A stretch of DNA of 64,000 bases from Lentisphaerota bacterium. GTDB lineage: Bacteria; Verrucomicrobiota; Kiritimatiellia; CAIQIC01; JAGNIJ01. The position numbers were made by a program, and so were the translations under genes. Below are positions 18,062-21,992 of this stretch, piece after piece; the first letter of the stretch is position 1, and every line of letters starts with the position of its first letter. Location of the stretch: the NCBI GenBank assembly GCA_052033915.1, contig JBPOJF010000010.1, positions 69,566 through 133,565 on the forward strand. The letters run 5' to 3'. The notes beneath the pieces were generated by a model. The model was given only the letters and a program-made list of their open reading frames with translations. It did no database searches and had not been told where the DNA came from.

Positions 18062-18532
18062 TCAGGATTTTGCGAGTTCCTTGAGCAGTCCGGCCTTTTC
18101 CGCTTTGGACAGCCACGCGTTCTCTTCGTTCAACATCGCTTTGCGAAGCGCCGGGGTGCGGTCGGATGCGCCGGCCAGGTGGTGGAGGCCGTGCGCGATG
18201 TACAGGGCCAGCTCACGGCCGGTCCCTCTTTCCGTTCGGCCGACGGCTTGAGCGCGTTCGGCGTTAACAAACACCTCGCCCGTCGAGCGCGGTTTCTCGC
18301 CGGGCACGCTGTCGTACGTCAGGCTGATCACGTCCGTAGGCCCGTCTTTCGAGAAGACGGCTCGGTTCACGGGCGTGATGCCGTCGTCGTCCGTCAAGAT
18401 CAGCGCGATTTCGGTCCAGGCCGCCAGCGGTTTGAGTTCGGGGCGGGAGGCGATCAGCCACGCCGCCAGCTTTTGAACCGCCGCGGTTCGAATCCGGGCT
18501 TTTTCCTGGCGGTTCTGCAGGACGAGTTTCAT
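18062..18532 (-). CDS. ybeY: rRNA maturation RNase YbeY
   Basis: GPTDVISL, GEVFVN, HGLHHLAG; ATG 18532 overlaps the phoH stop. Confidence 0.88.
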   Translation of the reverse strand: MKLVLQNRQEKARIRTAAVQKLAAWLIASRPELKPLAAWTEIALILTDDDGITPVNRAVFSKDGPTDVISLTYDSVPGEKPRSTGEVFVNAERAQAVGRTERGTGRELALYIAHGLHHLAGASDRTPALRKAMLNEENAWLSKAEKAGLLKELAKS

Positions 18533-19491
18533 CCGCGTGTTTCGCCGCGTTCCTCGCGGTAGGCCTGGATGATCTTCTGGACCAGTTCGTGCCGGACGAC
18601 ATCGGAATCGGTCAATTCGGTGAAGGAAATACCTTCGACCTTTGCCAGGGTGCGTTTGGCCTCGCCGAGGCCGGATTTCTTGTTCGGAGGAAGATCGATC
18701 TGCGTCAGGTCGCCGGTGATTACGCACTTCGAATCGAAGCCCAGGCGCGTGAGAAACATCAGCATCTGCTCCGGCGTCGTGTTTTGCGCCTCGTCGAGAA
18801 TGACGAACGCGTGGTTCAGCGTGCGGCCGCGCATGTACGCGAGGGGGGCGACTTCGAGGATGCCGCGCTCCATATTCCGTTGAATCTCGTCGGGGGACAT
18901 CATGTCGTAGAGCGCGTCGTACAGCGGCCGCAGGTACGGCGAGACCTTCTCGTGCATGTCGCCGGGCAGGAACCCGAGCGCCTCGCCCGCCTCGACCGCG
19001 GGCCGCGTGAGGATGAGCCGGCTGACCTCGTTGCGGAGAAGGGTGTTCACGGCCATCGCCATGGCGAGGTATGTCTTGCCGGTTCCGGCCGGGCCGATGC
19101 CGAACGAGATGTCCGTGCTGTGGATGTTTTCGACATACCGCTGTTGGCCGAACGTGCGGGGGAAAATGGCGGACTTGCCGGGGCCGACGTCGATCCGGCA
19201 GTCGTACAGCCGGTTCAGGTCCTCTTCGCGGCCTTCATGGAACGCGCGGAGGGCGAATTGAATCCCGTGTTCGCGCAGGATTGCCCCGGACCCGCGCGCC
19301 CGGCGCAATCCCTCGAAGAAACGTTCCGCGGCCGCCGCATTTTCCTCGGCGCCTTCGATGCGGAGCCATGTGTCGCGCGCCGTGAGGCGGACGCCCATGG
19401 ATTGCTCGACCCGCGGCAGGTATTCGCCGCGTCGGCCGATGATGTCCTGCGCCTCGCGCGCGTTATCGAAATGGACGGTTTTTTCAGCCAT
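18529..19491 (-). CDS. phoH: PhoH-family ATPase (YbeZ-like)
   Basis: GPAGTGKT, LTRPAVEAGE, APLAYMRGRT, ILDEAQN, VVRHELV. Confidence 0.95.
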   Translation of the reverse strand: MAEKTVHFDNAREAQDIIGRRGEYLPRVEQSMGVRLTARDTWLRIEGAEENAAAAERFFEGLRRARGSGAILREHGIQFALRAFHEGREEDLNRLYDCRIDVGPGKSAIFPRTFGQQRYVENIHSTDISFGIGPAGTGKTYLAMAMAVNTLLRNEVSRLILTRPAVEAGEALGFLPGDMHEKVSPYLRPLYDALYDMMSPDEIQRNMERGILEVAPLAYMRGRTLNHAFVILDEAQNTTPEQMLMFLTRLGFDSKCVITGDLTQIDLPPNKKSGLGEAKRTLAKVEGISFTELTDSDVVRHELVQKIIQAYREERGETRG

Positions 19492-19610
19492 GCGGGCTCC
19501 AGTAAATCCAAAGGGGGTGGGGGCGTCAATGGCAATTGGATTGCGTGTCGGGATGCATTGGACCGACGAAAGGCCGTTGTACGATACGGTAGGGAAGAGA
19601 TTCTACCTGT

Positions 19611-19655
19611 TCGGCGGCTGTAGCAGGCTGTGCGGCCACAGGCCCAGTTGGGTCA
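19611..19655. repeat. 45-bp direct repeat, copy 1 (displaced 3' end of gene 20614-21426)
   Basis: tcggcggctgtagcaggctgtgcggccacaggcccagttgggtca; 44/45 identical to 20625-20669. Confidence 0.95.
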
Positions 19656-20624
19656 AAACGGTGCGAAAAGGCGATAGGGGTTGATTTCTTACTGTGTAAA
19701 TCAGAAAGCGAAACCGAAGGCCGCAGACACACTACTCTCGCCGACAATACGTCCTTCAATCCGGAGCGAGAGATTCTCGTGGAAAAGAAGAGACGCGCCA
19801 GCAACTAGAACGACCGGACTATCCTCTTCAGGATCCGCGCTTCCTTTGGCAGTAACTGCGGTATCCGGATAATCATACTTGTAGTCTACCGTTCCGCGAA
19901 GCAAGGAGAACAGGATGCCACCGTATGGAATAATTTTCCTGTTGGCACCCAACGCCAGATTTGCAGATAGGATCATACCCGCTCCGATTTCGTAGTAGTC
20001 AGCTTCGCCGGTTATCTTCCCTGGGCCCAAGTCAGGATCTGAAGCGTCTATGTCCTTGATATCAAATGAAGGAACATAGTGTACCGTCGCTAACGCGTTC
20101 AGTCTCATCTTGGCCTGTTCATAGACGAGCGTGCGCGCTCCTCCGCCAACGATAGTCACGGTGGATTCTTGATCTTTCTCATCAACCACGCCAGCGTCCA
20201 AGTAGAACGTGACCCTCTCAGTTGGAAGAAGGTTAAGCCGAAGTACAAAAAGGTTCTGGTCTAGGGTATTCGATTGATCCTCGCCGCCAGGGCCAGAAAC
20301 TTGACCCCCTGGACCCGAAGCGGTGATTTCGCCAAACTTAATGTTTATATCGCGTTCATATTTTTCATAAAGAACCTCAACGCGGTTGTTATCCCACGAA
20401 TCGACGTCTTTTTTGTAAACTGGATCGCCAACATCGATTGCCAATGTAATTCCCGTCGTTAGTACCCCCGTTGCCAAGAAAGCAGTTATCAGTTTCTGTA
20501 TTCGGCTCGTTTTCAATAGCGTCTTCCTCCTTGGTTCTGATTCGATCCCGCCATCAAGATGATTCTTTGCTAGCCACATATCAATGAGTTTCGCATTTCT
20601 GATCCTCTTCGCCTCAATTCTGTT
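19656..20624. mobile_element. Low-GC genomic islet of ~1 kb between att-like direct repeats, no integrase
   Basis: GC 29/60 in the line at 19861 and 22/60 at 20341 versus 35/60 at 20701; bounded by the 45-bp repeats. Confidence 0.65.
19701..20516 (-). CDS. Putative outer-membrane beta-barrel protein
   Basis: AAGGAGG RBS then TTG at 20516; signal peptide; alternating amphipathic strands; C-terminal ...AAFGFAF (terminal Phe, BAM-type signal). Confidence 0.7.
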   Translation of the reverse strand: MKTSRIQKLITAFLATGVLTTGITLAIDVGDPVYKKDVDSWDNNRVEVLYEKYERDINIKFGEITASGPGGQVSGPGGEDQSNTLDQNLFVLRLNLLPTERVTFYLDAGVVDEKDQESTVTIVGGGARTLVYEQAKMRLNALATVHYVPSFDIKDIDASDPDLGPGKITGEADYYEIGAGMILSANLALGANRKIIPYGGILFSLLRGTVDYKYDYPDTAVTAKGSADPEEDSPVVLVAGASLLFHENLSLRIEGRIVGESSVSAAFGFAF

Positions 20625-21426
20625 TCGGCGGCTGAAGCAGGCTGTGCGGCCACAGGCCCAGTTGGGTCAGCACGTTGAGGCGCGCTTCGTTCTGGCGCGC
20701 GATGGCGACGACGGTGGGGGTGAAATCCATCTCGATTTTCCCGAGGTCCACCCGGAATTCGGGCTTCGCCCCGTACTTGCCCTCGAACATGCGTCCGACG
20801 GAATGCATGACAAACCAGATCAGGTGCAGGAACGCGTACAGGTGCGCGCGATGGTCGCCGGCATCGTCCATGGCGTTCGTCCGCAGCGCCGCCTGCCGCG
20901 CGTTGTTTCCCGTGAAGGTGATCGCGTGCGTGTAGTAGCGAAGGTCCGTTTGCAGAAACTCGTCTCCAAGCCGGCTGAGCACCTGGCGGATCGTGTCTGA
21001 CGCTGGAAGGTGCTGGGAGCGCAGGCTGTCGCCGGTGTACGTGTCCTGGTGCTGCTTGCGCGCGTTCTTACCGGTGTTGCGGTTGATCCAGATGGTCGCG
21101 TTTTGCGGGTCGTCGATCCACTTGCCCATGATCAGGGAAGACTCGACGAACGGGCGAAGCGCGATCCATGCCTGGCACGACTGGTACGCGGCAAGGTGGT
21201 CGAACGCGCTCCGGGCGGACCGCTGCATGATCGACAGAAACGGCCCGAGCTGGAATTCGCTGTTCGGGTGCGGTGCGCCGCCGGAACCCAGACCCGCGGC
21301 GAAGCGCCCGAAGATCTTGTCGAACTGGTCGAATGCCGCGAATTCCGTCTGGTAATTCAGAAGAAACATCTCGCGGTTCTGGCTGATCGCGGCGCGATGG
21401 CGGAGGATGTCGTCGGGTGGGCTCAT
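20614..21426 (-). CDS. Hypothetical protein
   Basis: 270-aa ORF with host-like GC, 7 nt after the HIT gene; no motif recognised. Confidence 0.7.
   Translation of the reverse strand: MSPPDDILRHRAAISQNREMFLLNYQTEFAAFDQFDKIFGRFAAGLGSGGAPHPNSEFQLGPFLSIMQRSARSAFDHLAAYQSCQAWIALRPFVESSLIMGKWIDDPQNATIWINRNTGKNARKQHQDTYTGDSLRSQHLPASDTIRQVLSRLGDEFLQTDLRYYTHAITFTGNNARQAALRTNAMDDAGDHRAHLYAFLHLIWFVMHSVGRMFEGKYGAKPEFRVDLGKIEMDFTPTVVAIARQNEARLNVLTQLGLWPHSLLQPPKQN
20625..20669. repeat. 45-bp direct repeat, copy 2 (current 3' end of gene 20614-21426)
   Basis: tcggcggctgaagcaggctgtgcggccacaggcccagttgggtca. Confidence 0.95.
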
Positions 21427-21433
21427 TCGGAAA

Positions 21434-21913
21434 TCAATCCTTCATCGCTTTCCGGAGTTCTTTCCACAATTCCTGGAGGGCCTGGGGGATCACACGGATA
21501 TCGGCCATGACGGTGACGTAGTTCGTGTCGCCCGTCCATCTCGGCACAATGTGCAGATGGATGTGGTCCTTGAGCCCGGCGCCGGCGGCCTCGCCGATGT
21601 TGATGCCGACATTGAATCCGTGCGGCCGCGACACCTTCTTCAACGCGCGGATGGCCTGCTGCGTCAGCTCCATCATCTCGGCCAGTTCCGCGGGGTTCAT
21701 GTCCTCCAGCGTGGCTGCGTGGCGAAGCGGAGCGACCATCAGGTGGCCGCCGGTGTATGGATAGCGATTCATCAGGACGATGCAGGTTGTGCCGCGCTTG
21801 AGCAACAGATTGTCGCGGTCTCGGGATGATTTGAAGCTCTTGCAGAGAAAACAGCCTTTGTCTTTGGCCTTCTTGAAGTACTCGATTCGCCAGGGGGCCC
21901 AAAGTTCTTTCAT
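21434..21913 (-). CDS. HIT-family nucleotide hydrolase (Ap4A phosphorylase/FHIT-like)
   Basis: LWAPWR, CFLC, NRYPYTGGHLM, GEAAGAG, HIHLHIVPR. Confidence 0.93.
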   Translation of the reverse strand: MKELWAPWRIEYFKKAKDKGCFLCKSFKSSRDRDNLLLKRGTTCIVLMNRYPYTGGHLMVAPLRHAATLEDMNPAELAEMMELTQQAIRALKKVSRPHGFNVGINIGEAAGAGLKDHIHLHIVPRWTGDTNYVTVMADIRVIPQALQELWKELRKAMKD

Positions 21914-21992
21914 ATCATCATGCCGTCCAGTAGGATACAGGCAAGCTATCAACGCGGGCCGGAGTGGTCAAGGCGGCGTTCGTGCGGACCGG

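Follow-up and report, generated by a model that had tools for sequence, protein, structure and literature searches.

A recombinase-less, single-gene islet flanked by att-like repeats at the 3' end of a conserved protein-coding gene in a Lentisphaerota bacterium

Results

A low-GC islet lies between two copies of a gene end

The window analyzed here is a 64,000-nucleotide (nt) stretch of a Lentisphaerota bacterium genome (assembly GCA_052033915.1, contig JBPOJF010000010.1, positions 69,566 to 133,565), a third of a 181.5-kb contig; all coordinates below are counted from its first letter. Within it, a string of minus-strand genes runs in the order HIT hydrolase (21434-21952), a gene encoding a conserved all-alpha protein of 270 residues with no assigned family (20614-21426, here called the host gene), a gene encoding a predicted outer-membrane beta-barrel (19701-20516), phoH and ybeY. 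The barrel gene is carried by a short islet whose specific DNA covers 968 nt (19656-20623, minus strand), and the inserted unit, counted with one copy of the repeat core, is 1014 nt long. A sequence-only reading of the window had proposed that this unit is an integrase-less insertion at the 3' end of a protein-coding gene, bracketed by a repeat resembling an attachment (att) site.

A repeat finder places a 54-nt direct repeat at the two islet borders (19610-19663 and 20624-20677, 93% identity, spacing 1014 bp). Direct alignment shows that 44 of 45 positions inside it are identical (19611-19655 versus 20625-20669), with an exact core of 34 nt (19622-19655 and 20636-20669), and that the lone mismatch (T at 19621, A at 20635) reads CTA or CTT on the minus strand, both leucine and therefore synonymous, just as first described. 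This pair is the sole direct repeat of at least 28 nt across the window, and a 43-mer from it occurs twice against an expectation of zero in 100 shuffles. Copy 2, where host gene and islet meet in an attL-like junction, contains the last codons of the host gene and closes its open reading frame (ORF) on the minus strand as ..TQLGLWPHSLLQPPKQN* (..QPPKQN*, asterisks denoting stop codons). Copy 1, the attR-like border of the islet with the chromosome, reads ..RTVLTQLGLWPHSLLQPPNR* (..QPPNR*) on the same strand, in a frame that belongs to no gene, so that the initial view of one attached and one unattached gene end holds.

The DNA between the two copies differs in composition from its surroundings. 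Islet GC content is 0.49, compared with 0.62 for the window; it drops from about 0.63 to 0.44-0.53 between the repeat copies, and the islet is the window's only stretch with a GC content below 0.53 when 400-nt windows are used. GC and ORF analysis thus agree with the earlier description of low-GC DNA holding one gene. That gene is closely framed, with 97 nt on its 5' side and 37 nt on its 3' side inside the islet, and no pseudogene debris is seen there.

The repeats do not resemble recombination sites that rely on secondary structure. No inverted repeat was reported at the islet ends by the repeat finder. The only dyad in the repeat core is a 5+5-nt inverted repeat (CTGTG GCCG CACAG), which is not above chance, and both repeat regions fold no better than shuffled sequences (single-strand z-scores of 0.87 and -1.41). 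An attC-like site or a recombinase-core dyad was rejected on these grounds. Integrative mobile elements exploiting Xer recombination (IMEX), which are XerCD-dependent, integrate at chromosomal dif and are flanked by dif-like 28-bp sites. By eye, the repeat is unlike the dif consensus of Escherichia coli (which may not be that of this lineage), and it is instead the coding end of a gene.

The two repeat copies are reciprocal hybrids

Recombination between attP and attB within a shared core is expected to produce reciprocal hybrids, attL and attR. The flanks of the two copies were therefore compared with homologous loci in other genomes (designated by L numbers), the closest of which is L005. 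Read in gene orientation, copy 2 consists of CTC AAC GTG CTG, the core, and AAA CAG AAT TGA, and copy 1 consists of CGC ACC GTT TTG, the core, and AAC AGG TAG. The tail of copy 1 (NR*, 19603-19611, minus strand) exactly matches the terminal bases of the L005 host gene (AACAGGTAG, ..QPPNR*), and the bases that follow its stop codon (TCTTCCCTACCG) align with L005 just past the stop codon there. Upstream of the core, the gene-proximal flank of copy 2 (..AAC GTG CTG) agrees with L005 at 11 of 12 positions, whereas the corresponding flank of copy 1 (RTVL; 19656-19665, minus strand) agrees at only 9 of 12, the host-type codons being RNVL or LNVL. Joined to each other, the two outer halves give ..NVLTQLGLWPHSLLQPPNR*, which is L005-like in both its flank and its tail.

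The two inner, islet-side halves tell of a different source. When joined they give RTVLTQLGLWPHSLLQPPKQN*, of which 20 of 21 residues match the peptide of L003. The islet RTVL matches L003, L068, L071 and L072 with only synonymous changes, and the KQN* end that now closes the host gene (20614-20625, minus strand) is shared with the more distant L003 and L023 (71-72% protein identity) and not with the closest relatives L005, L001 and L006, which end in NR*. The similarity of the islet to the gene end stops exactly at the stop codon. Because the inner halves match another clade and the similarity ends at the stop codon, the incoming DNA must have brought with it an authentic 3'-terminal piece, 66 nt long, of another lineage's orthologue. 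The repeats themselves are reciprocal hybrids of the attL/attR pattern.

Several simpler origins of the repeats were considered against the same flanks. A target-site duplication was rejected, since the inner flanks are a diverged orthologous gene end and not unrelated DNA; a transposon or insertion sequence was likewise rejected, as there are no terminal inverted repeats and no transposase. One-sided joining events occur in natural transformation, and linear DNA from a relative could have entered by homology at one end and illegitimate joining (or break repair) at the other, with no circle involved, at a locus that does show other rearrangement. In that case, however, copy 1 should be wholly native, yet its flank carries the threonine and the codons of other clades, and it is the flank of copy 2 that is L005-like. 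In addition, 60-nt windows across the final ~200 nt of the host gene show 87-100% identity to L005, which leaves no donor tract upstream of the core. One-sided illegitimate joining was rejected on the non-native flank of copy 1, and we consider entry as linear DNA very improbable.

Relatives lack the islet but differ downstream of the host gene

If the islet is an insertion, it is expected to be absent from related genomes. The L005 locus, from a wastewater-type metagenome-assembled genome (MAG) labeled 'uncultured Lentisphaerae', has 94% nucleotide identity to the window and matches both flanks (24764 to 20624 and 19545 to 16064), and L006, L071 and L072 are ~79-82% identical to the window. 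The barrel gene and the second gene-end copy are absent from all four, and L001 likewise has neither barrel gene nor repeat. No second gene-end copy was found in L003/L073, L005, L006, L068, L071 or L072. Since L005 matches both flanks and lacks the barrel gene and the repeat, as do L006, L071 and L072, the barrel gene was inserted in the window's lineage. This bears out the proposed insertion into a protein-coding 3' end. The host gene ends in ..PPNR* in L005, L001 and L006, the same end as the displaced copy 1, so the proposal that the gene end was regenerated and the native end displaced downstream also holds, down to the last residues in the closest relative.

The sequence-only reading had further predicted an empty site, with a host gene ending in ..PPNR* directly upstream of phoH. 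No relative has this arrangement. Its own refuting case, relatives that all carry the barrel gene in place, is contradicted by what was found, but an empty site was not seen either. Instead, a convergent gene encoding a 747-residue protein lies between host gene and phoH in L005, L006, L071 and L072; in L001 it lies downstream of the host gene, and the contig ends before any phoH. Its coordinates are 4169-6412 in L005, 6831-9026 in L006, 869-2932 in L071 and 1855-2054 in L072, and its product has no Pfam or NCBIfam family. In the window, a 57-nt scar (19546-19602) replaces the ~2.4 kb that hold this gene in the four relatives, and the scar keeps a vestige of the gene's stop codon (TAG at 19590-19592, plus strand). 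The 747-residue gene has thus been lost from the window. Since one gene is gone and another gained, the locus has undergone at least two events, a deletion and an insertion. The islet is a real and well-delimited insertion, as first read, with a more complex locus history than that reading proposed.

More generally, the 5' side of the host gene is conserved among relatives (holA, a peptidase-like gene and the HIT gene), while its 3' side is variable, with the 747-residue gene, a defense island, an ABC-transporter cluster or the barrel gene as its contents. In L073 (11020-20790; the same contig as L003, with the KQN* end), the 3' flank contains transposase-like genes (DUF4277, DUF6788) together with an SNF2 helicase and NOV_C protein, a DUF4325 protein and a ThsB-type TIR protein, and looks like a defense island; no second gene-end copy lies within 10 kb. 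In L068, the 3' flank encodes a Wzt-type ABC transporter. It is conceivable, at low probability, that the 1014-nt unit, made up of one gene and a 66-nt gene-end mimic, is a mobile cassette in its own right and moves as a small circle among related bacteria of the Planctomycetes-Verrucomicrobia-Chlamydiae (PVC) group by means of a recombinase encoded elsewhere or the cell's own recombination. If so, the 3' flank of the host gene would be a hotspot for cassettes and islands, an integron-like system without an integron.

The cargo is a compositionally foreign outer-membrane barrel gene

The cargo gene encodes 271 residues, with a signal peptide, an outer-membrane beta-barrel of ~12 strands and a C-terminus ending in ..FGFAF. 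Its start is likely the TTG at 20516, 7-8 nt after AAGGAGG, rather than the ATG at 20579. With a GC content at third codon positions (GC3) of 0.49, the gene is compositionally foreign: the values of the 54 further genes predicted in the window, probably including some spurious ORFs, are 0.62-0.88. The protein has no Pfam or NCBIfam family and belongs to a family of ~260-residue proteins with 97 representatives at 50% clustering. An AlphaFold model built with 46 family members has a mean predicted local distance difference test (pLDDT) score of 92.3 and shows an N-terminal helix followed by ~12 long antiparallel strands. All of its top fold matches in the PDB are outer-membrane barrels (OpcA, OmpT/Pla, FapF and autotransporter barrels; TM-scores of 0.35-0.47). 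On the strength of the model and these matches, the cargo can be predicted with confidence to be an outer-membrane beta-barrel, the label it had been given at the outset.

No promoter-like or terminator-like site was found on the minus strand of the islet. Because the islet has neither and sits within a string of genes on the same strand, the cargo is probably expressed by read-through from the upstream genes.

Barrel-gene homologues from other loci (L004, L066, L067 and L074) share similarity with the cargo gene in the coding region only, and their contexts differ. An attempt to define cassette boundaries from them was ruled out for this reason, and since no gene-end motif accompanies them. 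In the distant genome of L074 (2521-4795), an apparent operon places the homologue P0039 behind two genes for polytopic membrane proteins (261 and 221 residues). This arrangement may be the native context of the barrel family; in the window, the barrel gene is solitary.

Islet and junctions recur in independent metagenomes

Public reads were examined as Logan contigs and unitigs built with k=31, a word size shorter than the 34-nt core, which therefore cannot be strictly phased. The strain was found in wastewater, activated-sludge and digester metagenomes of several independent studies, and at least five studies include runs in which the islet occurs together with its flanks at similar word shares. 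The core forms a separate 34-nt unitig in these assemblies, and contigs break at it in high-coverage runs. Even so, runs of lower coverage from other studies yielded junction-crossing contigs with zero differences for copy 1 (run X3, 19430-20577) and for copy 2 (run X5, 20462-20690; run X4, 20553-20758), and in each of these three runs one coverage gap accounts for the absence of the other junction. One junction present with the other lost to a coverage gap fits the assembled structure better than it fits two separate molecules.

Depth across the locus was compared in three runs. In each, the islet unitig is shallower than its neighbors (6.6 versus 8.4-9.8 in X1, 10.2 versus 11.3-17.5 in X2, and 5.0 versus 5.8-8.7 in X3), and the core unitig, with depths of 13 and 21.1, reaches about twice the depth of the islet, which fits zero empty alleles but, within noise, is also compatible with a share of ~25%. 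The dip in islet depth is thus only a weak hint of a minority empty allele. Run X10 has the flanks without islet pieces, but at a depth of only 2-5x, which is not significant. No joints, loose ends or alternative junctions were reported in these k=31 data, where empty and circular forms would go unseen, and a search for Nanopore runs gave none.

These data also bear on the possibility of a chimeric assembly, in which two strains, or one strain and a different molecule, were stitched at a 34-mer common to both. Graphs built with short words cannot phase a core longer than 31 nt, and the shallow islet unitig is what such stitching might leave behind. However, contigs from three further studies cross one or the other copy without differences, islet and flanks travel together across studies, and stitching would not create the islet-side RTVL fragment. 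We consider an artifact hardly credible, and the refuting case that the sequence-only reading had named, a repeat created by assembly, does not apply.

Searches for a recombinase or helper

No integrase, excisionase, relaxase or transfer gene, and no other recombinase, is present in the islet, which encodes only the barrel. No recombinase was found among the 27 window ORFs scanned with Pfam, and the other ORFs were judged by eye to resemble housekeeping genes. The description of the islet as integrase-less is thereby upheld. The core and a degenerate gene-end pattern gave zero matches in viral contigs, and the islet matched no phage or plasmid record. Within the window, the repeat has no copy beyond the pair.

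The same topology could arise with no dedicated recombinase, if a small circle or tandem piece from a related bacterium were joined to the chromosome by RecA-type recombination over the 34-45 nt. The repeats would then be plain homology and not att sites, and the islet would be lost at the low rate of repeat-mediated deletion. The observed anatomy is explained equally well by RecA-type recombination and by a site-specific recombinase. RecA-type recombination is favored because the homology is long (the exact tract and its 44 of 45 matches lie within similarity that extends to both sides, covers 66 nt and looks like that between orthologues), because the core has no significant dyad or hairpin, and because neither a recombinase in the window nor a helper was found; the islet's gene end, moreover, clearly stems from a related genome's copy of the same gene. 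A site-specific recombinase is favored because identity drops sharply at the core edges while the coding similarity continues beyond them, as in attP/attB pairs. Homologous recombination also needs a donor in which the barrel gene already stood before a second gene-end fragment, or a circularized form, and so pushes the origin back, and a tract of 34 nt is close to the minimum at which RecA recombination is efficient. On balance, insertion without any dedicated recombinase is a possible but tentative explanation.

The islet could also be the remnant of a larger element, either an integrative and conjugative element (ICE), an integrative and mobilizable element (IME) or a prophage, that once had its own integrase and was reduced by internal deletions to the cargo and its att sites. 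Such an origin in place is documented for cis-mobilizable elements (CIMEs) (PMC5704250, PMC7563491), and a deletion, the loss of the 747-residue gene, did occur next door. However, the islet is extremely compact and free of debris, its repeats are still nearly identical while the backbone differs by 6% from L005, which suggests a recent event with little time for decay, and the collections searched yielded no larger element related to it. Because of this compactness and near-identity, we regard a remnant formed in place as possible but less likely.

The host gene and its neighbors

For the host protein, 34 homologues were identified, the majority in MAGs assigned to Kiritimatiellae, Verrucomicrobiota and Lentisphaerae. 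Since it has no Pfam or NCBIfam family and no sequence or fold match in the PDB, its family is an uncharacterized, conserved one. The AlphaFold model is all-helical (pLDDT 84). Members of this ~260- to 270-residue, all-alpha family share the invariant motifs GKW..DDP and (D)HRAH.YA.LH and are found at 30-40% identity in Acidobacteria, Gammaproteobacteria, Chloroflexi, Methylomirabilales and Desulfosarcina (homologues L010-L017 and L024-L065). Three nonsynonymous differences fall within the 9 nt at 20681-20689 (minus strand), which lie 3 nt upstream of the 54-nt repeat: every close relative, L005 included, has E-V-H-R-N/T, against E-A-R-L-N in the host gene of the window. One further homologue, P0032 on a 933-bp contig of the European Nucleotide Archive (ENA), follows the host family over its first ~150 residues in the alignment and then diverges; it carries a precomputed Pfam match to PF04986, an IS91-type Y2 transposase, and an IS91-like insertion within the gene in another organism is a possible cause of this divergence.

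Downstream of the islet, phoH (18529-19491, minus strand; Pfam PF02562, E = 4e-94) is 96% identical to the phoH of L005. Upstream, the HIT gene of L003 (5473-5987; 9473-9987 in L073) is split into two 80-residue calls, with three frame-shifted matching pieces, which probably reflects indel errors of long-read assembly and not a real pseudogene.

Discussion

A proposed history of the islet

We favor, with moderate confidence, the view that the islet was acquired horizontally, as a CIME-like, att-flanked unit, through one reciprocal crossover between the chromosome and DNA carrying a mimic of the gene end. The incoming DNA would have held the barrel gene and the 66-nt copy of the host gene end from another lineage of that gene. 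A single Campbell-type exchange, in which the carried copy recombined reciprocally with the final ~45 nt of the host gene at a point within the 34-45-nt identical core, would have yielded both junctions at once: copy 2 would combine the left half of the host with the right half of the islet, so that the gene now ends in KQN*, and copy 1 would combine the left half of the islet (RTVL..) with the right half of the host (..NR*). The cargo, with its own ribosome-binding site, would then have come to stand between host gene and phoH, read through from upstream. A helper that targets the gene end may have brought the islet in or left it there, or the cell's homologous recombination may have inserted it. 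If a site-specific recombinase acted, it would have done so in trans, for example from a helper that integrated in tandem and has since gone, as in the accretion and mobilization of CIMEs (PMC5704250, PMC7563491). The incoming DNA may have been circular, and mobilization in trans with excision of a 1014-bp circle, as put forward in the sequence-only reading, is at most putative.

Several observations weigh against this account. No helper element targeting the host gene end was found in relatives or in viral, phage and plasmid collections, and no second copy of islet or core was seen in the collections searched. Neither an empty (attB) nor a circular (attP) junction appears in the k=31 contigs, in which the 34-nt core would hide both, and such contigs likewise cannot strictly link the two sides of the core. 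Both repeat copies read CAA CTG at a point where the sequence of L005 and L006 is CAG CTC; a single crossover is compatible with this only if host and islet were already alike there or if the copies were homogenized afterwards. Finally, the barrel homologues elsewhere lie in ordinary chromosomal contexts with no gene-end motif or mimic beside them, and the cargo family is thus not generally cassette-borne.

Comparison with known elements

Islets of this anatomy have precedents, as integrase-less, att-flanked islets at protein-coding 3' ends are already documented (PMC5704250, PMC7563491, PMC3191183). CIMEs, as defined previously (PMC5704250), occur in streptococci at the 3' ends of fda, rpsI, rpmG and tRNA-Lys genes, with sizes of 1.2-13 kb, and microCIMEs measure 130-220 bp (PMC7563491). 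The islet resembles them in its attL/attR-like direct repeats, which include the 3' end of a protein-coding target, in the displaced target end (NR*) of the distal copy with its hybrid flanks, and in carrying cargo without integrase, excisionase, relaxase or transfer genes. It differs in its size of ~1.0 kb with one gene, between microCIMEs and classical CIMEs, in its host, a PVC-group bacterium (a Kiritimatiellae/Lentisphaerae-like MAG) and not a Firmicute, in a target gene of no assigned function, and in having no trace of an ICE or IME backbone or of a tandem helper. Within a limited search space, neither debris nor a related element in relatives or in viral, phage and plasmid collections points to derivation from an ICE or IME. 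The islet is thus CIME-like rather than an established CIME, cis-mobilization being putative.

The microcin H47 island of E. coli has extended imperfect direct repeats and no recombinase, recombines within segments of identity and shows host-dependent mobility (PMC3191183). The islet is similarly small, with imperfect direct repeats and without a recombinase. However, the H47 island spans 13 kb with many genes, and its RecA-independent excision and integration were seen experimentally, whereas mobility of the islet is putative and its repeats are the last codons of a gene.

Integrative islands are known to regenerate the 3' end of their target, including protein-coding genes such as trmE, the site of Salmonella genomic island 1 (SGI1) (PMC8409611). 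As in SGI1 and in islands that target tRNA or tmRNA genes, an incoming copy of the target's 3' end would keep the host gene intact, with the native end displaced into attR. Those islands encode their own tyrosine integrase next to attP, whereas no recombinase gene lies between the repeats of the islet. With integron cassettes, the islet shares a length of ~1 kb, a single gene, the lack of a recognizable promoter or terminator, a presumed circle and a recombinase that would be encoded elsewhere. It differs from them in having no attC-like fold, no inverted repeat at its ends and no intI or attI, in being solitary and in its coding repeats of 45-54 nt. An integron cassette was rejected because there is no attC and no intI, attI or array, the neighbors being the HIT gene, host gene, phoH and ybeY.

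Implications

The islet is a small, recombinase-less example of an already known kind of integrated island and not a new mechanism. What is new is its unusual host, an uncultured and little-studied lineage of wastewater and digesters, and its target gene. Islets that stand alone between att sites and lack an integrase are held to be widespread yet systematically overlooked, since detection relies on signature genes (PMC7563491). A search rule that combines a displaced gene end with a low-GC3 gene would find them. If the unit proves mobile on its own, cassettes can spread on a short gene-end mimic alone; as matters stand, the islet is an ordinary but well-resolved case. For the organism, it offers a clean natural example of a single adaptive gene for a surface-exposed barrel entering a conserved operon while the target gene is left undamaged.

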